DNA of 47,021 bases from a virus (Duplodnaviria; Caudoviricetes), in the IMG/VR virus record IMGVR_UViG_3300011443_000008, positions 1-47,021 of that record. One strand, 5' to 3'. The position numbers were made by a program, and so were the translations under genes. Positions 3,336 through 43,609 of this stretch are shown piece after piece. Positions within the stretch are counted from its first letter, which is position 1, and each line of letters begins with the position of its first letter. Below the pieces are notes generated by a model. The model did no database searches. It was not told where the DNA came from and worked only from the letters and a program-made list of their open reading frames with translations.

Positions 3336-3952
3336 GAGCCTGGACGCTGGAACTCACAACGAACCCCACGATGGAGCCCCTGACGCTCGAAGAGGTCAGG
3401 GACCATTTGCAGATCGACCACGAGGACGAGGACGCTTGGCTTGACGCCAAGCTGGCCGAAGCGCGCCAGAAGGTGGAGGACGCCTGCGGGAAGTCATGCC
3501 TCACCCAGACCCGAAGGTTGAAGCTCTTGGACTGGCCCTGCTCGGGCATCATCACGCTGCCCAGAGGGCCAGTCGCCTCGGTCTCGAGCATCACCTACCT
3601 GGACACCAACGGCGACAGCCAGACCTGGAGCAGCGGCGACTATCAGGTGGACACGGCCGCGCAGCCCCCGACCATCGTGCCGGTCTACGGCGAGTCATTC
3701 CCCTCGATTCGCACCCAGGATGGCGTCTACGTGGTGACCATCACCTACGTGGCCGGCTACACGGCACGAGGTCACGAGGACCTGCAGCAGCCCCGCCAGG
3801 CCATGCTCGAGCTGATCCGCCTGTGGTGGGAGAACCGTACCGGACTGATCCAGTTCGGCACCGCCACGCCACTGGTGGAGCTGGAGGCTGGCATCCTGGC
3901 CAAGCTGGTCAACTTCACCGACGTCACCGAGTACGACCGAGCGTTCGCATGA
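3332..3952 (+). CDS. Head-tail connector protein (HK97 gp6 / phiE125 gp8-like)
   Basis: EPLTLEEVRDHLQIDH..ED, LPRGPVASVSSITY, VTITYVAGY and QAMLELIRLWWENR motifs. Confidence 0.88.
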   Translation: MRAWTLELTTNPTMEPLTLEEVRDHLQIDHEDEDAWLDAKLAEARQKVEDACGKSCLTQTRRLKLLDWPCSGIITLPRGPVASVSSITYLDTNGDSQTWSSGDYQVDTAAQPPTIVPVYGESFPSIRTQDGVYVVTITYVAGYTARGHEDLQQPRQAMLELIRLWWENRTGLIQFGTATPLVELEAGILAKLVNFTDVTEYDRAFA

Positions 3953-4053
3953 CCCGCCTCGCCCCTCGCCGCCTCACTCGCCTTCCCTGTGCCTTGCACG
4001 GTGGCCGGACAGCGCACCGTTCGGCCATCTCCCTCCCCATGGTGAGGTGATGC

Positions 4054-13540: not shown

Positions 13541-13894
13541 ATGCAGCCGCGCTCCCAGCGGTTCCGGTTCTACGAAGATGCCGGCACCACCGACACCACC
13601 ACCGGCGTGCATACCGAGGACTGGTCCAGCGAAGTCTGCACGCGCTGGGCCGCAGCACTTCCGGAATCCGATAACGCCTTCGCCGCCCTGCGCGCGCGGC
13701 ACGGTTTTTTCCATCTCGGCCTGGTGCTCGCCTACGACGCCACGGCGCTGACCCTCTCGCCGGCGCATCGCGCCGTGTGGGTCCAGACGGGCCGCGAGTT
13801 CGAGATCGTGGGCGTCATCGACCCCGATGGGATGCACCGGGAAATCCATATCGCGCTGGCCGAGCGGTTTATCACCAGGAATGTGACCTCGTGA
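13541..13894 (+). CDS. Head closure / head-tail adaptor (SPP1 gp16-like)
   Basis: EDW..V..RWAA and HRAVW..GREFEIVGVIDPD..REI patterns. Confidence 0.75.
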   Translation: MQPRSQRFRFYEDAGTTDTTTGVHTEDWSSEVCTRWAAALPESDNAFAALRARHGFFHLGLVLAYDATALTLSPAHRAVWVQTGREFEIVGVIDPDGMHREIHIALAERFITRNVTS

Positions 13895-16137: not shown

Positions 16138-16569
16138 ATGGGCTTCGACATCGAAGCGGCGGCGGAAATCACGAAGGCCGAGGACGAGGGCGTGGTCGTG
16201 GCGATCATCGACCCGCGTTCCGGCGAGGAAGCAGCCAAGGTCACAATCGTGGGCACCTACTCGGCAACCTATCGCCGGGAATGGGACGCCCTGACCAATC
16301 GGCTGATCCGCCAGCGCAAGATCGGGAAAGCCTCTACCGAGGAAAAGGAACGCGAAGAAATCCAGTTGGTGGCCGCCTGCATCCTGGACTGGGAAGGCAT
16401 CCGGCTGGGCGGCCGGGACCTCGCGTTCTCCAAGCCCAACGCCATCACACTGCTGACGAAGGCGCCGTTCATCCTCGAGCAGTTGTCGGCCGCGATGCGG
16501 GATCACGAACGTTTTTTCTCGAACGGCTCGGGGACCTCATCGCCTACGCCCGCCACGTCGGGCGACTAA
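16138..16569 (+). CDS. Tail assembly chaperone (gpG-like)
   Basis: VGTYS..YR, VAACILDWEGI, FSKPNAI and RFF at the slippery site. Confidence 0.85.
   Translation: MGFDIEAAAEITKAEDEGVVVAIIDPRSGEEAAKVTIVGTYSATYRREWDALTNRLIRQRKIGKASTEEKEREEIQLVAACILDWEGIRLGGRDLAFSKPNAITLLTKAPFILEQLSAAMRDHERFFSNGSGTSSPTPATSGD
16512..16518 (+). other. Programmed -1 frameshift heptamer T TTT TTC
   Basis: Correctly phased X XXY YYZ near the end of the chaperone; the -1 frame is open to 16877. Confidence 0.85.
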
Positions 16570-31274: not shown

Positions 31275-32748
31275 ATGAGCAGGACCCGGAGCGCACGACC
31301 CGAACAACTCGCGGGCCACAAGCGCGTCGGCGGCAGGGTGTCGGTGGCCATGTCCTGTGAATGTGGCTGGCGGTCGTCGTCGTGGACGGGGCCCGGTGCT
31401 CGCTGGTCAGCCGACGCCGAATGGCGCGAGCACCGTGCATCGCACCAGGTCGTGAAGCACGAACAGCCCATGCGGGGAGTCTGATGAGCGAGAGCCTGAG
31501 CGCACGACTGCGCCTACAAGCCCGCATTGCCCGTGGATGCGTATCAGAAGAAGTCTCGCCGCTGCTGGCCGAAGAAGCCGCTGACGAACTGGACGCCTGC
31601 ATAGAAGCCCTGCGGGACGTAATCGCATGGCGCGAAGGACCCGAAGCCCCTGCGTTCATTCACGATGCAAAGCCGTGGCTCAAGGCTCGTGCCGTACTGG
31701 AGCGAGTCGCCCCGCCCATGCCTAACGACAAAGGCGCTGCCCATGAGTAGCACACGACTCGACAAGGCGGGCATCATCGCCGCGCTTGTTGACGGTGCCG
31801 AGTTGCTCCTGACGGAGCCGTATTGGGATGCTCGCCGTGTTGCCCGTGCGTGGCTGGCGTGGCCATCAGGCGAGCGAGTCGAGGCCAACCGACGCAGTGC
31901 GGACGCAGTGCTCGCTCGGCGTAACGGTTCGATCACCGGTCCCGTTCGCCACATCCGCGACACCGTGGGCGGCAAGGTCTATGGCTTACGTGCGGTGATT
32001 CAACCTCACGAACAGAAAGGCGTAACCCATGAGTAGCGCCAGGTTCACGGCGTTCGTGGAGGCGATGGCGCTTTACGTCGAAGCACGTCGAGTGCTGGAC
32101 GAGAAGCTGGACGCCTACGAAGGCTACTCGCCGGACTACGAATTGTCGCAAGAGTTCGACGCTCGCGCACGGACAGAGCGCGCCGCCGCTGCCGCCTTCC
32201 GAGATGCCGTCCTTGAGGCAAGTCCGGGGGTTCGGGATGCCTAGCCGAATGTCAGGCGGTGTCCCGGTGAGTGAGCCCAAGACGCTACCCGAGAAGGGAA
32301 TGCTGCCGTGTCCGTGGTGCGATATCCCTCCGGTGAATCACGGATGGGTTGCGTGCCACACGAAGGGGTGCCCGCTGGAGCGTGTGTTGTTCTCCCGCGA
32401 AGGTTGGAATGCTCGCTGGGACCGTCGCGCCCCCTCCCCGGAAAACGCTGTTCCTGTGTCTGCTCCGTCCCCTCAGGAGAAGAAGGCGTAGCCATGGAGC
32501 GCGACGGGTTGTACGAGGTGACCGAAATCCTGGTCCCGCCCGTTGACGCGGAGGCTGGGGTGCGGCTGCGCTGGAAGGTCACCAACCGGCGCACCGGCAG
32601 CGTTGAAGTCGTGGCGTTGCTGCGGCCCACCGGGGCGGCGCCGGCGCTGGCCTGCACCTGCTCGTTGCCCTTCTGCAATCACCGGCAGGAAATCCTGCCC
32701 CGGATCGGTCCTACCTTCCCGCCGCCTGACGGACAGGCCGTCGCTTGA
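31275..32748 (+). other. Cluster of small, coupled hypothetical early genes (31275-31484, 31484-31750, 31743-32036, 32029-32244, about 32267-32491, 32494-32748)
   Basis: Overlapping start/stop junctions and RBSs; the last ORF has a SWIM-like CTC..CNH motif. Confidence 0.55.
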
Positions 32749-32900
32749 AAGGCGTTCTCTCTCCCGCATGGGAACGGGCCACCATCGCCACCATCGTGCG
32801 CTGGCACTACCGCAACGAGTGGTGGAGCGAACGGCTCAAGTGGTTCAAGCCCACGGTGCCAGGTCACCTCGTCAGACGCGCCCGACCGAGCGTGAACTGA
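32745..32900 (+). CDS. Small hypothetical protein (51 aa, ends RRARPSVN)
   Basis: TTG start overlapping the previous stop; stop overlaps the HNH ATG; read manually because it is below the ORF-track cutoff. Confidence 0.55.
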   Translation: MKGVLSPAWERATIATIVRWHYRNEWWSERLKWFKPTVPGHLVRRARPSVN

Positions 32901-33376
32901 TGGAAAAGACGGCACTGAGGATACTCCGAGAACATCTGACACGCAGTCCCCGGTTCGAGTTGGGATTCTGGCGGCGAGTAAAAAAGGGGGCCGACTGTTG
33001 GCTTTGGGCCGGACGGCGCAACCCGATGGGGTACGGCATGGTCGATGTGCCGGGAAAGAGCGCACGACTGGCGCACCGCGTTTCCTATGCCCTGTTCCAC
33101 GGGGCCGTGGAGCCCGGCTTGGAATTGGATCACCTGTGCCGCAACCCGGGTTGTGTCCGGCCCGATCACCTCGAGGCGGTTACGCACGACGTAAACATGG
33201 CCCGCGGCAGGCGAGCGAGCCAGACCCATTGCCTGAGGGGTCACGAGTTCACCGCAGAGAACACCAGGTTCAAGAAAAACGGCACACGACAGTGCCGTGC
33301 GTGTGATCTCCTGCACGAACAACGACGCAAACCCCGCGTTCATTGGCGTCGCCGGGCGCGCCCGAGCGTGAATTGA
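32900..33376 (+). CDS. HNH endonuclease with C-terminal zinc domain
   Basis: CWLW..GYG..AHRVSY..LDHLCRNPGCVRPDHLE..N and THCLRGH..RQCRAC motifs. Confidence 0.92.
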   Translation: MEKTALRILREHLTRSPRFELGFWRRVKKGADCWLWAGRRNPMGYGMVDVPGKSARLAHRVSYALFHGAVEPGLELDHLCRNPGCVRPDHLEAVTHDVNMARGRRASQTHCLRGHEFTAENTRFKKNGTRQCRACDLLHEQRRKPRVHWRRRARPSVN

Positions 33377-33957: not shown

Positions 33958-34469
33958 CGACTGCAACCGTGCCCGACACCCTGTACGCACTGGCCCCGCA
34001 GTACGCGATTCTGCTGCGCGAGTTGGAGGCGTCCGGGGGCGATGTCACCGACGAGGAGTTCGCCGCCCACTTCGACGCGATCCAGCAGGGATTCGGGGAA
34101 AAGATCGAGGCGTGCATGCTGGTCGCCCGGCACCAGATGGCCGACGCCAAGGCGTTGACCGAGTTCGCCCGGCCCTTCATCGAGCGGGCGGCGAGGCTGG
34201 AGAAGGAAGCGGAGCGCATCAAGCGGTACGCGATGGGCTGCATGATCGTGGCCAACCAGATCCGCATCGAAACCCCGCTGGGTGGCGCCCGGATTCAGTT
34301 GAACCCGGTGAGCGTGAAGGTGGACTGCGACCCGGCGACGTTGCCCATCGAGTTCACCCGCACGGTGGTGGAGCCGGACAAGAAGATGCTGGCCGAGCAG
34401 CACCGGCTGGGCCTGCCGCTGCCCGAAGGCGTGAGCGTCGAGCGCACCAAGCGGCTGGTGTGGCTGTGA
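33954..34469 (+). CDS. Siphovirus Gp157 family protein
   Basis: LY.L, EKIEA, coiled coil, NPVSV, LP.EF, EPDKK and GV motifs; adjacent to the recombinase. Confidence 0.85.
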   Translation: MTTATVPDTLYALAPQYAILLRELEASGGDVTDEEFAAHFDAIQQGFGEKIEACMLVARHQMADAKALTEFARPFIERAARLEKEAERIKRYAMGCMIVANQIRIETPLGGARIQLNPVSVKVDCDPATLPIEFTRTVVEPDKKMLAEQHRLGLPLPEGVSVERTKRLVWL

Positions 34470-35020
34470 ACCTCACCGACCTGGCCAAGCCGTTCCCGGC
34501 GACTGACATCGAGTGGCGCGTCGGGCAAGCGGGGATGAAGGGCGAGAAGGTGTGGGCCAAGGTGCTGGCCTACATCACCAACCGCGCCATCATGCAGCGA
34601 CTGGACGATGTGTGCGGCCCCGGCAACTGGCGCAACGAGTTCCGCTACGAGCCGAGCGGCGCAATCCTCTGCGGCATCAGTGTCCGGGTCACTCGTCGCG
34701 GAGCAGCATCCACGGACCCGCATGTGTCGGAATGGGTGACGAAGTGGGACGGCGCCGAAGCGACGGACATCGAAGCCGTCAAAGGCGGGTTGTCCAGCGC
34801 CATGAAGCGGGCCGCGGTGCAGTGGGGCATCGGCCGCTATCTGTACGACCTGGAGGAAGGCTGGGCCACGGTCGGGGAGAGCGGCGTCCACTACGTCCCG
34901 AAGAACGAGAAGAAGGGCACCCCGGCGTTCCGGTGGAGCCCGCCCCGACTGCCCGCGTGGGCATTGCCCACGGACGACGAACCGCGGCGGCCGGCGGTGG
35001 AGATGGCGACCCAGGCGTAG
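34466..35020 (+). CDS. Rad52/Rad22-family single-strand annealing protein (Sak)
   Basis: LAKPF..DIEWRV, LAYITNRAIMQRLDDVCG..NW and KGGLSSAMKRAAVQWGIGRYLY motifs. Confidence 0.93.
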   Translation: MNLTDLAKPFPATDIEWRVGQAGMKGEKVWAKVLAYITNRAIMQRLDDVCGPGNWRNEFRYEPSGAILCGISVRVTRRGAASTDPHVSEWVTKWDGAEATDIEAVKGGLSSAMKRAAVQWGIGRYLYDLEEGWATVGESGVHYVPKNEKKGTPAFRWSPPRLPAWALPTDDEPRRPAVEMATQA

Positions 35021-38082: not shown

Positions 38083-38766
38083 ATGAGCGAGCAAGGCGTT
38101 TCCCAGAACACCAACCAAGGAGCGAACATGCGTAGCGACTATTGCGAGTTGGCCATCGTGCTGGACCGTTCCGGCTCCATGTCCACCGTGAAGAACGACA
38201 TGGAGGGCGGCTTCGCGAGGCTCATGGAGGAGCAGCGCAAGTTGCCAGGTGAGTGCCGGGTGACCCTGACCCAATTCGACACGCAGGGCATTGACACCGT
38301 CTACGAGAGCAAGCCCGTAGCCGACGTTCCCGCGCTGGTGCTGGAGCCTCGCGGCGGGACTCCGTTGCTCGACGCCGTGGGCGATGCGGTGACCAGCCTC
38401 GGTAAGCGGCTGGCTGCAAAGCCCGAAGCAGAGCGTCCCGGTAGCGTGGTGGTCCTCATCATTACGGACGGCGAGGAAAACAGCAGCACGCGCTTCACGA
38501 AGGCGCAGGTCAAGGAGTTGGTCGAGCGCCAGACCACGACCTACAAGTGGTCGTTCATCTACCTCGGCGCCAACGTGGACGCCTTTGCTGAAGCGGGTAG
38601 CATGGGCATCGCCGCAGCCGCAGCGGCCTCATACACGCCAGACAGTGCGGGTGTAAAGGCGGCGTACTTCGCGGCCAGCGCATCGGTTGGTCGGTCCCGC
38701 TCCGGCGGCACCGCCGACCTCACGCAAGCCGAACGTGATGCGATGAACATCAAGGGCGCGAACTAG
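38083..38766 (+). CDS. von Willebrand factor A domain protein (alternative start 38128)
   Basis: MIDAS LDRSGSM, PRGGTPLLDAVG, IITDGEENSS and WSFIYLGAN motifs. Confidence 0.92.
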   Translation: MSEQGVSQNTNQGANMRSDYCELAIVLDRSGSMSTVKNDMEGGFARLMEEQRKLPGECRVTLTQFDTQGIDTVYESKPVADVPALVLEPRGGTPLLDAVGDAVTSLGKRLAAKPEAERPGSVVVLIITDGEENSSTRFTKAQVKELVERQTTTYKWSFIYLGANVDAFAEAGSMGIAAAAAASYTPDSAGVKAAYFAASASVGRSRSGGTADLTQAERDAMNIKGAN

Positions 38767-38835: not shown

Positions 38836-39006
38836 ATGGCAGGCGTCTACGTTCCCGAGGACGCTCGCGTGGAATGCGCGTGGGAGCAGATCGCCACGGA
38901 GCTGCTGCGGCGACTCGTCCACGCCGAAGCTGAAGCAGCCCGTGCGCGTGTTCGCGCCAGCGAGGCCGAAATGGAACTCGAAAACTTCAAGCGAGGGCAT
39001 CGGTGA
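38836..39006 (+). CDS. Small hypothetical protein (56 aa)
   Basis: AAGGAG RBS; MAGVYVPED..GHR; stop overlaps ATG 39006; read manually. Confidence 0.55.
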   Translation: MAGVYVPEDARVECAWEQIATELLRRLVHAEAEAARARVRASEAEMELENFKRGHR

Positions 39007-40229
39007 TGGTTGATCTTCCGGCTCCCCGAGAGGAACTCCCGGTGGCGATGCGGGCATTCAAGTATCGCCTCTACCCGACCGCTGCCCAGGCGCGGGAGCT
39101 GCACGCCCAGATCAACGAGGCGTGCCGGCTCTACAACGCCGCGCTCCAGGAGCGTCGGGACGCGTGGAACAAGTGTGGCGTCCGCGTGACATGCTACGAG
39201 CAACACCGGCAACTGACGGAGATTCGGGCCGCGGGCGATGTAGCCATTCCGTCCTGTGTCGTGGCGCGGGATGTTCTGCTGCGCGTGGACAGGGCGTTCC
39301 GGGCATTCTTTCGCCGGGTGAAGGCTGGTCAGAAGCCGGGGTATCCACGGTTTCGGGCTGCGCGTCGATACGACTCCATAACGTGGACGCAAGGGGAAGC
39401 GCCCATCGTCAACGGGCTGGTCAGGCTGTGCGGCGTCGGCCATGTTCGCGTGCTCCTGCACCGGCCGGCGCCCGAGAACATCAAGACCACCACCGTCAAG
39501 CGGGAAGCTGGTAGGTGGTTTGTTGTGGTTGTGGCCGAGGTGGCCGACGAGTCACTCACTCCAATCGGGGCATCGGTTGGAGTTGACGTTGGACTCGCAA
39601 CCTTCGCCACGCTTAGCACGGGCGAGAGGGTCGAGAACCCCCGCCACGCCGCCGCGGCCAGCCAGAAGCTCCGGGTTGCCTGCCGTAGCGTGGCCCGCCG
39701 CACCAAGGGCAGCCAGGGCCGGCGGAAGGCCGTCCGATTGCTTCAGCGTGCCTTGGCGCACGTCCGCAACCAGCGCCGCGACTTCCATCACAAAGTGTCC
39801 CGCAGCCTGGTCAACCGCTTCGACCTGATCGCGGTCGAGGCTCTCAACGTCAAAGGACTCGCCAGGGCGATACTGGCGAAGTCGGTACATGATGCCGGAT
39901 GGGGGCAGTTCTTGGAGATGCTGACCTACAAGGCTGAAAGCGCCGGTAGGCAGTTGATCCGAGTCAACCCGTCGGGCACCTCGCAACGGTGTGCGATCTG
40001 CGGCACCGAGGTACGCAAAACGCTGGCGCAACGGCGGCACGATTGCCCGGCGTGTGGCGTGAGCCTCGACCGCGATCACAACGCCGCGTTGAACATCTTG
40101 GGGGCCGGGTTGGCCCTTGCCGCGCCAACGTGGGCCGAAGTAAGGCCGAGCGTTGCGGCAGAAGTGGGACGCGCCCACGGACCACGAAGCTCCAGCGATA
40201 CCGTTTTTTTCCGGGGCCGCCAGGGATGA
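39006..40229 (+). CDS. tnpB: TnpB RNA-guided endonuclease (IS200/IS605 OrfB family; alternative start 39048)
   Basis: AFKYRLYPT..Q, CRLYN, GYPRF, RuvC-I GVDVG, RuvC-II IAVEAL, zinc finger CAIC/CPAC, RuvC-III DRDHNAALNI. Confidence 0.95.
   Translation: MVDLPAPREELPVAMRAFKYRLYPTAAQARELHAQINEACRLYNAALQERRDAWNKCGVRVTCYEQHRQLTEIRAAGDVAIPSCVVARDVLLRVDRAFRAFFRRVKAGQKPGYPRFRAARRYDSITWTQGEAPIVNGLVRLCGVGHVRVLLHRPAPENIKTTTVKREAGRWFVVVVAEVADESLTPIGASVGVDVGLATFATLSTGERVENPRHAAAASQKLRVACRSVARRTKGSQGRRKAVRLLQRALAHVRNQRRDFHHKVSRSLVNRFDLIAVEALNVKGLARAILAKSVHDAGWGQFLEMLTYKAESAGRQLIRVNPSGTSQRCAICGTEVRKTLAQRRHDCPACGVSLDRDHNAALNILGAGLALAAPTWAEVRPSVAAEVGRAHGPRSSSDTVFFRGRQG
40102..40203 (+). ncRNA. Putative omega RNA (3' scaffold about 40102-40185, guide about 40186-40203)
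   Basis: Overlaps the tnpB 3' end. Hairpin GGGCC/GGCCC, nested stems TGCCGC/GCGGCA, AACG/CGTT and GGCC/GGCC, hairpin GTGGG/CCCAC, terminal CCAC complementary to GTGG (40130-33), then T7. The 5' end is undefined. Confidence 0.65.
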
Positions 40230-40564
40230 AGCCGCTGGAACAGGTCCTGGCTGACTGGTCGGAGCGGGTATCGGCCGCACGGTTCCTCAAGCACGAGCGC
40301 GAGGCCGAGCTACTGGACCAGCTGGTTGCCGAGGTACGGGAATCGGCCCACGAGTACATCACCTGGATCTCAGAGGCCGAAGCCGCCCTGCGTTCGGGCC
40401 ACCAGACCCCATGGTTCCGCCACCGGTTCGCGGAGTGGGAACGGGCCGGCCATGCGCGGCGTGGCAAGTCGGGGCGGGAGTACCGGATGTTGATCGTGCC
40501 GCGGCGAGCCAACCTGGCGGCGGCTCGCGAGGCTGGCCGTCGGGCGGCCCGGGACGCGGCGTGA
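40226..40564 (+). CDS. Putative excisionase / recombination directionality factor
   Basis: WISEAEAALRSG HTH-like motif; directly upstream of and coupled to the integrase. Confidence 0.55.
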   Translation: MKPLEQVLADWSERVSAARFLKHEREAELLDQLVAEVRESAHEYITWISEAEAALRSGHQTPWFRHRFAEWERAGHARRGKSGREYRMLIVPRRANLAAAREAGRRAARDAA

Positions 40565-42051
40565 GGGCCAAGCGCCAGGTGCTGTTCCAGCAGGGGCCGA
40601 AACGGGCCAAGGCCGGGGTGCCGCGGGTCCGGGTCTACGTGGACAGCGCCCGGCGTTTGGTCACCGTCGAATCCACCGGACGGGCCAAGCAGAGTTACGG
40701 CCTGACCCCGGCCGGCAAGCGGGAAGCCATCGCTTACGCCAAGGCGTTTTTCGAGGAGGCGAACCGGGTCAAGGAAGCGGCCAGCGAGCCGGTGCCCACC
40801 GTGCGCCAGCTCTGGCACCGCTACGTGGTGGCCTTCCAGGATGCGTGGCGACCCAAGACCCGGCTGGGCCATGGCAACCGGTGGAAGCTCTGGGAGCGGT
40901 TCGTCTTTCACGACACGCCGGCCGACCGGGTCACCGCCGACCACCTGGACGGCTTCAAGACGGCGCTACTGGCACAGGAGTACGCCAGCAACCAGGTGGC
41001 CGCCATGGTGGGCCTGGTGAAGCAGGTGTTCCGCTGGGCCGTGGTCGAGCGGAAGGCGCTGCCTCATTCCCCGGTGCTGGACTACCGCCTGAGACTGTCG
41101 CAGGACCATGGACCGGCCGAGCCCGAGGAGTACCGGCTCGAGGAGTTCGAGCGGCTGGTGCCGGCCATGGGCAGTCCACAGGACAGTCGCAGCTGGCGGG
41201 CGTGGTGCGTCCTGATGCTGGCCGGCCACCAAGGTGCCCGGGCCAACGCGGTGCTGCGACTCAAGGTGGCCGATCTGCACGACGGGCGGTTGTGGTGGCA
41301 GCGGGAGAGCGACAAGCGCCACCGGACCTGGAGCCAACCGATCAGGGACGGGGCGCTGGCGGCGATCCTGACGGCGTTCGACTGGAGAGAGCGGGATGGC
41401 TACCACGGCCCGTGGCTGATCTACCCCAGGCCGAGGCCGGCCAAGGGGCCGCGGACTGACCGCGGCGGCAGGTCATGGCCTGATGGGCACGGTCCCTACA
41501 CCTACGCCGCCTTCCACGCCCAGCTCCAGAAGGCCGAACTGGCCGCCAAGGTGCCCCACCTGGACCTGCGGGCGGCCCACGGGCTGCGGAAGATGGTGGC
41601 TGGGGAGATCCTGCGGCTGACGGGCAATCCCAAGGCGGCGATGGACTTCATCGGGGACCAGGACCTGACGCTGATCCAGAACTATTTGAAGGTCCGCGAG
41701 GACGAGAAGGACGCGATTGCGACCCAGCTGGACGCCATGGACCGGACCCGAAACATGGACCCGAGCCGCACCGGTGGGATTGAGGGAGAAACGGCGCCTG
41801 CGGAAGTGGGCGCCGGGCTACAACTTACCAAGAGCCACCGGTCGGAATTGAACCGACGACCGCTCCTACTAAAGGAAAGGCCGCAGAAAGCGGCTGAGCA
41901 CGAAACCTCGTCGGAAACAGCGCCGTTCGCAACTCCAGCCGCCCCGAAAGTAGCCGAAACCGCTCCCGAAGTTGCACCCGGGGCGCACCCGGGAATCGTG
42001 CAACAGGAAAAGGCCGGCGTGCAACATCTCCCTGGTGGGAGCCCGAAGTGA
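40561..42051 (+). CDS. int: Tyrosine integrase
   Basis: Catalytic GAR (R), SDK (K), HGLRK (HxxR) and IQNY (Y); GTG 40561 overlaps the previous stop; low-complexity C-terminal tail. Confidence 0.9.
   Translation: MRAKRQVLFQQGPKRAKAGVPRVRVYVDSARRLVTVESTGRAKQSYGLTPAGKREAIAYAKAFFEEANRVKEAASEPVPTVRQLWHRYVVAFQDAWRPKTRLGHGNRWKLWERFVFHDTPADRVTADHLDGFKTALLAQEYASNQVAAMVGLVKQVFRWAVVERKALPHSPVLDYRLRLSQDHGPAEPEEYRLEEFERLVPAMGSPQDSRSWRAWCVLMLAGHQGARANAVLRLKVADLHDGRLWWQRESDKRHRTWSQPIRDGALAAILTAFDWRERDGYHGPWLIYPRPRPAKGPRTDRGGRSWPDGHGPYTYAAFHAQLQKAELAAKVPHLDLRAAHGLRKMVAGEILRLTGNPKAAMDFIGDQDLTLIQNYLKVREDEKDAIATQLDAMDRTRNMDPSRTGGIEGETAPAEVGAGLQLTKSHRSELNRRPLLLKERPQKAAEHETSSETAPFATPAAPKVAETAPEVAPGAHPGIVQQEKAGVQHLPGGSPK
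41832..41865 (-). other. attP core: 3' half of a tRNA (probably tRNA-Thr) inside int
   Basis: The minus strand reads GAGCGGTC GTCGG TTCAATT CCGAC CGGTGGC TC, i.e. variable loop, perfect T-arm and acceptor 3' strand; no 5' half is present. Confidence 0.85.
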
Positions 42052-42896
42052 CAGCCTACAGCGTTACACAGGGGTACGTAGGGCGGCGAGCGCATCGCCC
42101 GGTGTGGCTGTCTCGCGAGGACTGGCAGCGTCGGCTGATGGGTTGCTATCTGGGCCCCCGAGGCGTGCTGCGCGGGCGCGAGGTCGAGTGGTGCTGGACC
42201 TGTGGGCGGCGCTGGGTGCCAGCCGGCCACGTCCCGAAAAACGTAGTTGAGGGAGGTCTGAGGGGATGAGAAGCCAGCACGAACAAGAACGAGTTAACCG
42301 TGGAAAGGCGGGCTGGTGAACAAGACTGGGCCGGTGCGGCGCCGCGTCATCATGCACCCATGCGATGCGAAGTTGGCGCACGAGTTGGCGTACCGCTTCG
42401 CCGCGTCGGTGACGTTGTCGGAGAACTTTCCCGCCTGCAACCTTGGGCTGTGTGGCGAATGGAATGATCGGGACATCGAAGCGGTGTTCGCGCTGGCCCC
42501 CGGCTGGTACGTCAAGGAACTGGACTGATGCCTAACGCCTCGCGCCCCTCCACGGCTAACGCTGTTGACGATCTACCCTTGTTCAAGAAGTCGAAGAAGT
42601 TGACCCATAACGCCACCCTGGTCTGGCTCATCATGGCGCCAACTGATGGAAGATTTTTAGGTGACTACTGGAGTCAGGAAGCCATCGTGGAGCAGTTGAG
42701 GATTCGCTTCGGCGTGTTGACGAACACCCACGCGGTGAACACCCGGATGAGCGAGCTGGTGACCGTCGGAGGGTACGTGAAAGAGAAGCGGCGCTCCTCC
42801 ACGGGTAACGCCTATGAATATCGAATTTCGTCGCGTCCTTCAGGGGAGAGGGCTAGCGCCGAAGCTTCACCGTCAGGGAACGAGGCCGCGGCGTGA
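42048..42896 (+). other. Hypothetical genes (42048-42269, 42316-42528, 42528-42896; the last possibly a winged HTH)
   Basis: Coupled ORFs; AVNTRMSEL..G.Y..YEYRI resembles a winged helix. Confidence 0.55.
42845..42861 (+). repeat. 17-bp direct repeat, copy 1 (GGAGAGGGCTAGCGCCG)
   Basis: Identical to 43883-43899. Confidence 0.9.
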
Positions 42897-43062
42897 CCGA
42901 CTCCAGGGCCAGGAGCCACTCGCGGGCTTGGTCGGGCAGCACTTCGCCGGCCAGCCAGCGGCGGATGGTGCGTTCGTCCCGGCCCATGACCTTGGTAGCG
43001 AACTGGCGAGCGGACAGTCCGCTGCGCGTGATGGCAGCGGCCACCAGCTCGGCGTCAGACAC
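42853..43062 (-). CDS. Small XRE-type HTH protein
   Basis: SGLSARQFA..GRDERTIRRWLAGE. Confidence 0.82.
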   Translation of the reverse strand: MSDAELVAAAITRSGLSARQFATKVMGRDERTIRRWLAGEVLPDQAREWLLALESVTPRPRSLTVKLRR

Positions 43063-43609
43063 AGGAGCCCCACTGGGTGGCCATGGCCGTGGCGATGCCG
43101 GGGAACGTGCGGCTGCGGTTCTTCCAGCGGTCGGGCGAGGGTGCTTCGCGGTGGACCCGGGCGAAGCGGCCCTCCACGATCTGCGTGGGTTGGAGCGGCG
43201 GCAGGCCCTTGAGCCACCAGCAGGTTGCCTTCACCTCGCCGTGACCGAACTGCCACGGCTGGACGATCTGGTCAGGCTTCCGTATGCGGCTGGAGATGAT
43301 GCTGACCGGGTTCTCCAGTGCGATGCGGGGAATGGGCGCCTCCAGCAGCCGGCGCACGAAGTCCAGCGCGGCCGCCTGCTCGGGCAGCTTGTCCTTGAAC
43401 CAGCGGGCGCCGCTCACCGCCAGATGGGTACAGGGCGGGTGGGCGACCATCAGGTCCCAACCCCGGTCGAGTACGTCCAGCACGTTGCCCTGAATGTGCT
43501 GGCCGGGTCGCTCGCTCGGCAGTACGTCGCACGACCATGCGTTGTGACCACGGATGCCGAACGCATCGCGCACCGTGCCCGAGAACTCACAGGCGATCAG
43601 GACGCGCAT
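43055..43609 (-). CDS. Phage-type DNA cytosine-5 methyltransferase (short form)
   Basis: VLIACEFSG (variant motif I), catalytic HPPC, IALENPV, QPWQFGH and RSRTF motifs. Confidence 0.85.
   Translation of the reverse strand: MRVLIACEFSGTVRDAFGIRGHNAWSCDVLPSERPGQHIQGNVLDVLDRGWDLMVAHPPCTHLAVSGARWFKDKLPEQAAALDFVRRLLEAPIPRIALENPVSIISSRIRKPDQIVQPWQFGHGEVKATCWWLKGLPPLQPTQIVEGRFARVHREAPSPDRWKNRSRTFPGIATAMATQWGSCV

Follow-up and report, generated by a model that had tools for sequence, protein, structure and literature searches.

The locus considered here raises the question of why a phage should carry a gene for an RNA-guided nuclease of the IS200/IS605 type, tnpB, beside its integration genes, when neither the transposase gene tnpA nor a left transposon end accompanies it. 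The window, that is the whole stretch of DNA analysed (47,021 nucleotides), is the complete circular genome of a temperate phage, 47 kb long, with a 123-bp terminal repeat and a GC content of 66%, in which terminase, portal, capsid and tail genes are recognised by PHROG search. Its host is probably a member of the Gemmatimonadota, because a relative of the integrase is located in a Gemmatimonadaceae MAG, the integrase subfamily occurs in 15 of 401 Gemmatimonadota genomes (E below 1e-80), and that phylum supplies most of the Atlas models closest to the xis-like protein. The genes and sites in question are as follows.

38836 to 39006, + strand: ORF of 56 amino acids, function not assigned by homology (no Pfam or PHROG match)
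39007 to 39047, + strand: 41-nt gap from this ORF to the likely tnpB start, holding GAGG and TTGAT, without a left-end hairpin
39048 to 40229, + strand: tnpB, IS200/IS605 type (Pfam, ISDra2 alignment, catalytic triad), with alternative starts at 39042 and 39006
40226 to 40564, + strand: xis-like small gene, with no Pfam or PHROG match, directly upstream of the integrase family in 16 of 19 loci
40561 to 42051, + strand: tyrosine integrase (Pfam and PHROG), whose frame runs through attP
41836 to 41865, − strand: attP core, matching the 3′ portion of a tRNA; a contig break with loose ends is seen in runs X1 and X2, and related integrases have similar cores next to them

The letters adjoining the attP core read the anticodon CGT (Thr). 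The tRNA-Thr-like core coincides with codons 426–435 of the 496 in the integrase frame; integration at attP would alter the C-terminal tail of the integrase, and similar tails are seen in several related integrases.

The catalytic features of the protein itself are intact. All three expected Pfam domains (PF12323, PF01385 and PF07282, giving the order HTH, OrfB_IS605, zinc ribbon) score above their cut-offs, and ISDra2 TnpB aligns with it at E 6e-50. The initial annotation had described the RuvC acidic triad and both CxxC pairs as intact, and the alignment bears this out: D195 (39585–39587), E279 (39837–39839) and D358 (40074–40076) match D191, E278 and D361 of ISDra2, and the RuvC inactivation typical of TldR proteins is not seen. 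An AlphaFold model is of low confidence (pLDDT 65, pTM 0.43). The protein may cleave DNA in an RNA-guided, TAM-dependent manner. As to the borders of the gene, the letters TGATG are indeed present at 39004–39008, but the overlap with the upstream gene that had been read from them is doubtful: M16, encoded by ATG 39048, is the first residue aligned with both ISDra2 and the PHROG family, and the closest relative (locus L011) starts at the same position. ATG 39048 is thus the likely start, with ATG 39006 as a less likely one, and since a gap of 41 nt then remains, the claim that there is no intergenic space for transposon ends is also doubtful. At 40226–40229 tnpB and the xis-like gene do overlap by ATGA, and the last 15 or so tnpB codons read through the segment in which the guide and a run of T are found. 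That segment, and the scaffold before it, can be divided into the following parts.

40102 to 40116, + strand: omega-RNA hairpin with loop triplet GGT (40108–40110), predicted from covariation and loop pairing to form a pseudoknot with ACC (40181–40183)
40118 to 40160, + strand: omega-RNA long stem and inner helix, with two-sided changes in all 7 pairs of one and in 2 of the 4 pairs of the other
40161 to 40185, + strand: remodelled right end, by comparison with canonical ends, consisting of GAAG, a 5-bp hairpin (40164–40168 with 40174–40178) and CCAC
40186 to 40203, + strand: predicted guide, its 5′ end set by the pseudoknot and its 3′ end inferred
40204 to 40210, + strand: run of seven T, a rare run at which the omega RNA may have its 3′ boundary, with no terminator called

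The proposed omega-RNA scaffold is corroborated by covariation and by compensation in the pseudoknot. Over 22 aligned 3′ regions the 16 named pairs of three helices are paired in 96.9% of cases, and two-sided changes occur in 14 of the 16, far above shuffled and slid controls, in a test favoured by the structure having been drawn from the same 22 sequences. The pseudoknot of the ISDra2 RNA is formed between a scaffold loop and positions −5 to −3 (PMC10097598). The corresponding triplet pairs in all 22 sequences, 17 being fully Watson-Crick and five containing one G-U; among them are 20 canonical relatives, in which the loop triplet pairs with GTC, usually as GAC:GTC (15 Watson-Crick, five with one G-U). 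In place of this, the window has GGT:ACC and L011 has GGA:TCC, each compensated at two positions. As the end has changed and the triplets pair again, the fold was kept after the change of the right end, and the view that a guide-RNA system is maintained here holds up. The putative omega RNA overlaps the 3′ end of tnpB, as expected of TnpB systems, with its predicted pseudoknot just before the guide. With that pairing fixed, the scaffold ends with CCAC at 40185 and the predicted guide starts at 40186, as first suggested; the alternative register from 40179 is incompatible with the pairing and falls away, and the other ACC in range, taken as partner, would make the guide a run of T. The T7 run that had been seen to follow the guide is certainly rare, being one of only four + strand runs of at least six T in the window, although no terminator is called there. 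Two runs of six T lie in the tail region (13705–13710 and 16512–16517), and one of them may be a tail-chaperone frameshift site. The 23 codons within the scaffold show reduced synonymous change between the window and L011 (pS 0.38 vs 0.70). An Rfam search gave no match, and plain folding of the scaffold was no better than that of shuffled sequences (z −0.17). Matches to a covariance model (R1) were left out of the evidence as circular, the model having been built with the window and L011. Among RNA datasets, none is listed as carrying the window sequence, and expression data were not found.

If the RNA-facing parts of the element have been kept, those that face the transposase have not. The statement that the genome has no tnpA agrees with an empty Y1 search of the complete circular genome, in a series where the positive control was detected in 6 of 14 genomes; Y1 tnpA was absent from all five related phage records as well. 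No left-end hairpin preceded by a target tetranucleotide was found in the 39007–39047 gap. At the right end, 88 of 103 distinct related loci finish with GAAG, a hairpin of at least six pairs and TCA followed by C, G, A or T, in a classification that misplaces a few ends, and a tnpA C-terminal motif lies upstream in 16 of the 32 canonical loci examined. The window has neither the long subterminal hairpin nor the TCAC right end: from GAAG to the last tetranucleotide there are 17 nt in both the window and L011, against 23–26 in canonical kin, and the terminal hairpin has 5 bp in the window and 3 bp in L011. Three GAAG:TCAC pairs direct cleavage by TnpA in the scheme known from IS608, and the CCAC end breaks one of the three. 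The existence of a pairing scheme of this type is stated in 10.1101/2025.02.11.637750, where the right-end hairpin is described as tolerant of mutation for TnpB and needed by TnpA. Thirteen left ends of relatives, of the GGGGA/GGGCA-hairpin type and recognised by eye, are preceded by CCAT in 11 cases and by CTAT in one, the last being cut off, which points to CCAT as the likely ancestral TAM. The TTGAT at 39010–39014, put forward earlier as the TAM of an empty site, is not the motif of the sub-family, whose left ends follow CCAT instead, and it was rejected.

An ordinary recent insertion of IS1341 type, mobilised in trans by a TnpA of the host, might be expected from a typical IS605 TnpB with thousands of relatives at 53–65% identity, and from a GC3 of 0.77 compared with 0.81–0.92 in five of six neighbouring phage genes. 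Such an origin is already largely refuted, and is extremely improbable, given the missing left end, the short hairpin, the CCAC that breaks one of the three pairs, the failure to find any copy above 48% identity in 401 Gemmatimonadota genomes, and a nearest protein relative at only 65%; in this respect the initial annotation was right to set an ordinary insertion aside. The window tnpB is known from a single copy, and a metagenome scan covering 20 of 64 parts revealed no near-identical copies at unrelated sites. No joint lacking tnpB was found among contigs from the likely source run, in which rare variants are dropped. Solo IS1341-type and non-autonomous IS605 elements (PMC10055086, PMC10691335) resemble the window in having tnpB without tnpA; they keep TnpA-compatible ends and move in trans, whereas the ends of the window element are lost or remodelled and the RNA fold is kept. 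No CRISPR array, as would mark a phage type V CRISPR-Cas system, is visible adjoining the window tnpB, and the xis start lies 40 nt past the scaffold end.

The same condition seems to extend beyond this one phage. In a FastTree tree of 66 rows, the window TnpB and eight relatives (60–65% identity) form one branch with an SH-like support of 98. DNA is at hand for two of the nine members, the window and L011, so that a phage location and a CCAC end are shown for these two and would be compatible with others. L011 is a complete 52-kb phage that shares nothing except tnpB with the window, and a further member (P0010) lies on a 53.5-kb contig. Among four other members with read-through tails, three can encode TCCAC 15–20 nt past GAAG and the fourth TCCA, where 11% of control peptides are compatible and three proteins stop too early. 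Between the window and L011, dN is 0.33 and dS about 2.0 over 349 codons, which gives a dN/dS of about 0.16, with dS near saturation; purifying selection is apparent from this codon comparison.

The residues that would read the TAM follow a different course. In ISDra2 these are Y52, S56, K76, F77 and Q80, and both Y52A and Q80A abolish cleavage (PMC10097598). Eleven canonical kin, with CCAT visible in ten and one (L160) taken in by its left-end type, have Y, A/S, F/Y, S and Q at the equivalent positions, those of Y52, F77 and Q80 being invariant. In the clade the five positions hold four, eight, six, four and six different residues, and the equivalent of Q80 is replaced in all nine members by six different residues and is never Q, although the clade is less diverged overall than the canonical kin (65% vs 61% mean identity). 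The window has C, H, C, V and R, and with cysteine at the equivalent of Y52 its activity could be lost. What is new, as far as alignments of sequences can tell, is that TnpA-facing features appear to have been lost across a clade in which the RNA fold persists and the TAM residues vary; a search of the literature, mostly open-access, found no account of this clade, nor of phage TnpBs that are active and combine remodelled ends with diversified residues at the TAM positions. PMC10691335 reports non-mobile TnpB clades for which activity is predicted and which are mostly unlinked to other genes, and the window clade may be catalogued among them.

The position of tnpB within the integration module was the basis for proposing its domestication into a xis-int operon. 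Comparison of 19 related integrase loci, with integrases 28–38% identical and flanks of 1.5 kb for 15 and up to 6 kb for four, does not sustain this view: the xis-like gene is present in 16 and tnpB in none, so the module is conserved without tnpB, which is an optional gene in it. The locus L234, from genome G059, is among both the 19 integrase loci and the 16 xis matches. The closest integrase relative (P0125, 62%) lies on a 45.6-kb contig. In 12 of the 16 matches another frame, at least 45 codons long, has its stop overlapped by a candidate start of xis, so that the ATGA overlap is a property of xis, which overlaps whatever neighbour lies upstream. The closest relative of the window tnpB, L011, resides in an unrelated phage without a detectable xis-int homologue. 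In the window tnpB the in-frame stop of canonical elements is gone, and the gene therefore reads through to end at the ATGA overlap. It is likely that this read-through preserves the translational coupling seen for xis in most relatives, and selection for keeping xis coupled is plausible; the position of tnpB beside the integration genes looks incidental. An excisionase role for the xis-like gene is suggested by its position and by HTH_17/MerR leads in the Atlas that score below 0.9.

A stronger tie would exist if TnpB steered integration or excision, or were fused to Xis by a −1 frameshift. The T TTT TTC at 40204–40211 in the last tnpB codons is a possible site for such a shift into the xis frame, the −1 frame is open into xis (ORF 39989–40564), and the ATGA overlap provides coupling. 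A partnership of this kind is nevertheless highly improbable, considering the absence of tnpB from all 19 related integrase loci, the overlap of 12 of 16 xis genes with other frames, and an L011 phage that has only tnpB in common with the window; a longer, xis-containing protein was not found, which is weak evidence. The integrase-linked TnpBs reported in PMC10691335 are all inactivated, and the conserved integrase linkage with TnpB inactivation that marks the tyrosine-recombinase-associated type is not seen in the window.

If not its neighbours, then its guide may indicate what the nuclease is for. The initial annotation found no full match to the guide elsewhere in the phage, and the best match is indeed 13 of 18, with a longest seed of 8 nt. 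A host gene or competing element, also suggested as target, was sought in viral contigs and 401 genomes without success and without any shared 5′ motif emerging. In viral contigs a 16-mer of the guide gave 10 matches in seven distinct contexts, none sharing a 5′ motif. With up to two mismatches, 147 of the 401 Gemmatimonadota genomes, a set that includes the unpublished G059, G159 and G184, matched, one exactly, and no target was recognised; a reversed-pattern control gave a similar-looking rate. Inspection of 38 of the match sites revealed no common upstream motif. The sole exact match falls within a gene for a lipoprotein-like product in a single genome, and a recurrent two-mismatch site in a deacetylase-like gene has its mismatches at 13–14 and variable upstream bases. 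Five related phage records contained no site with up to three mismatches, and the best match in 16 xis upstream regions was 11 of 18, the integrases there (28–38% identical) being too distant for a fair test. The empty allele of the window site was not found in the related phages searched, none of which is a close sister. As for the guides of relatives, that of L011 was found only in itself among viral contigs and, with one mismatch, in 3 of 401 genomes compared with 6 for the control, and that of L025 had six other matches, unrelated by flanks and GC.

A fixed-guide weapon or repressor kept by the phage, whose guide did not come from the flank and is aimed at an unrelated mobile element or a gene of the host, must be considered in this light. 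The 18 nt that a rare T7 run delimits do resemble a discrete guide, and diversified TAM residues would fit re-targeting; the TldR proteins (10.1101/2023.11.30.569447) set a phage-borne precedent for the loss of transposon ends. As described there, TldR further resembles the window in having no tnpA, no recognisable ends and a retained guide RNA, yet it is nuclease-dead, targets promoters and is accompanied by a conserved partner gene, whereas the window keeps the triad; neither a conserved partner gene nor a promoter target was found for its tnpB. That such a weapon should be present is quite unlikely, as matches in the 401 genomes have no common 5′ motif, and as in four relatives (L011, L017, L025 and L090) part of the left flank recurs in the guide, an indication that the target is the insertion site.

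These repeats come largely from a second branch. L017, L025, L001, L090 and L012–L015, mostly viral, group together with a support of 99, and their ends are remodelled in another way and still fit their own loop triplets; by this comparison, the second phage clade is one that has remodelled its right end independently of the window clade. The start of the guide recurs 5′ of the cassette over 9 nt in L011, 11 in L017, 10 in L025 and 10 in L090. Guide-seed repeats thus end 0–54 nt before the start codon in four of seven remodelled loci, and repeats of at least 9 nt occur in none of 88 canonical loci. The left repeat is missing from the window, from L001 and from the 5′-truncated L015; in the window the best repeat is 6 nt long and 116 nt away, and a decayed copy was rejected because its best match, 9 of 11, was reached by 17 of 312 control windows. 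ISDra2 requires about 12 TAM-proximal bp for cleavage (PMC10097598), and all four repeats fall short of this length. In L011 the upstream copy is preceded by GTGGG and not by the ancestral CCAT, and the TAM required there may be absent. We have adopted the reading that the left repeats may be repair scars. In three of these loci (L017 3946–5131, L025 803–1991 and L090 456–1653) the cassettes bracketed by the 10–11-nt repeats appear to have their own −10 box and lie antisense, just upstream of an apparent ribosome-binding site of an opposite-strand gene. In L011, a repeat of some 25 nt is common to two successive gene junctions (3805–3836 and 3985–4015), the one before tnpB included, suggestive of cassette-like recombination in the early operon.

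The placement of the 9–11-nt repeats could also be taken to mean that TnpB binds partial guide matches at the 5′ edge of its own cassette without cutting and so represses itself. This is very unlikely, for the repeat is absent from the window and L001, and the keeping of the nuclease would be left unexplained.

Taken together, we give about an even chance to the proposal that the window tnpB is a free-standing, transposase-free, RNA-guided homing nuclease directed against sister phages in which the site just upstream of xis is empty, and the homing-like option of the earlier reading is thus adopted as the best one. The omega RNA would be processed from the early-operon transcript, and TnpB would cut the guide match and its TAM in a phage that has the same xis-int module and is either co-infecting or resident as a prophage. 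The break would be repaired from the tnpB-bearing genome, with xis-int as right homology arm and a left join that is often non-homologous, or else the rival genome would simply be destroyed. Left junctions keeping less than about 12 nt of the target would escape self-cleavage, which would explain the 9–11-nt repeats of the four relatives, and, once free of the fixed target tetranucleotide of TnpA, the TAM residues could drift to suit each new site. The broader statement, that at least two phage TnpB lineages have, each on its own, abandoned the IS605 life cycle permanently to become RNA-guided free-standing homing endonucleases, and that the window copy targets competitors for its tRNA-Thr attachment site, is made tentatively, its joint probability being short of even. 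In both lineages the TnpA-facing features of the right end would have been dismantled, the pseudoknot re-paired and the TAM residues diversified site by site, new sites being fixed through left junctions just under the length needed for self-cleavage.

It is also conceivable, though rather unlikely, that the window copy is an orphaned passenger of a past homing lineage, without a current target or TAM reading, which rides in the early operon. The lack of a target for its guide and of a left-junction repeat, the C64 and R89 at positions where alanine substitution kills ISDra2, the single known copy and the existence of 5′-truncated copies in the sister clade (L012–L015) all speak in its favour, and TnpBs that stand alone and do not move are frequent, with 89% of clusters immobile in PMC10691335. 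Against decay stand the full-length open frame, the intact triad, the dN/dS of about 0.16, and a window-specific GGT:ACC that differs from the L011 triplet and still pairs.

A homing role may be measured against known systems. The window resembles the ISDra2 TnpB–omega RNA complex (PDB 8H1J and 8BF8; PMC10097598) in domain order, D-E-D triad, zinc finger, the HK pair that binds the pseudoknot, loop pairing to positions −5 to −3 and a guide just past the scaffold. It differs in having no tnpA or left end, a terminal hairpin of 5 instead of 7–9 bp, a CCAC end, and other residues at all five TAM-contact positions of REC, which vary within the clade. TnpB-dependent, TnpA-independent displacement of IS-less plasmids is described in PMC11870625, and a 2026 review (PMC13565253) refers to TnpB homing between phages as theoretical. 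Such a TnpA-independent edge over the empty allele, known as gene drive or non-restorative homing in these two sources, is the mechanism proposed for the window; the drive of PMC11870625 concerns an intact IS605 in plasmids, whereas the window element appears unable to transpose. The T4 enzymes SegF and SegB, as presented in PMC13565253, are likewise optional nucleases in a phage operon and proposed cutters of related co-infecting genomes, but the target in the window would be read by RNA and, on our proposal, would be the insertion site itself.

If true, this would extend TnpB homing from plasmids to phage–phage competition, and the clade would offer a ready-made natural set of compact nucleases that differ in TAM and use a shorter scaffold. 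Its members are nine natural variants for TAM screening. The TnpB TAM is normally tied to the insertion motif of TnpA (PMC11870625), and a clade with nuclease and RNA fold but without TnpA-compatible ends and with scrambled TAM residues is a direct test of cutting this tie, which is relevant to the step from TnpB to Cas12. Should the proteins prove inactive, the locus would be one more immobilised IS remnant.

Some other features of the early regions may be mentioned. The window encodes a Rad52/22-family annealing protein (34466–35020), and an ORF of L011 (1012–1719) appears ERF-like by eye; either protein could mediate microhomology joins in break repair. A free-standing HNH endonuclease gene (32543–33376, PHROG 826), with a homologue in genome G406, lies in the same early region as tnpB. 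Upstream of the 56-residue ORF is a vWA-domain gene (38083–38766, PHROG 7371), of which 204 nt recur without a difference in run X2, the product of a separate study. A DNA methyltransferase gene and a small gene (42853–43609, − strand) are antisense within an early region otherwise on the + strand.
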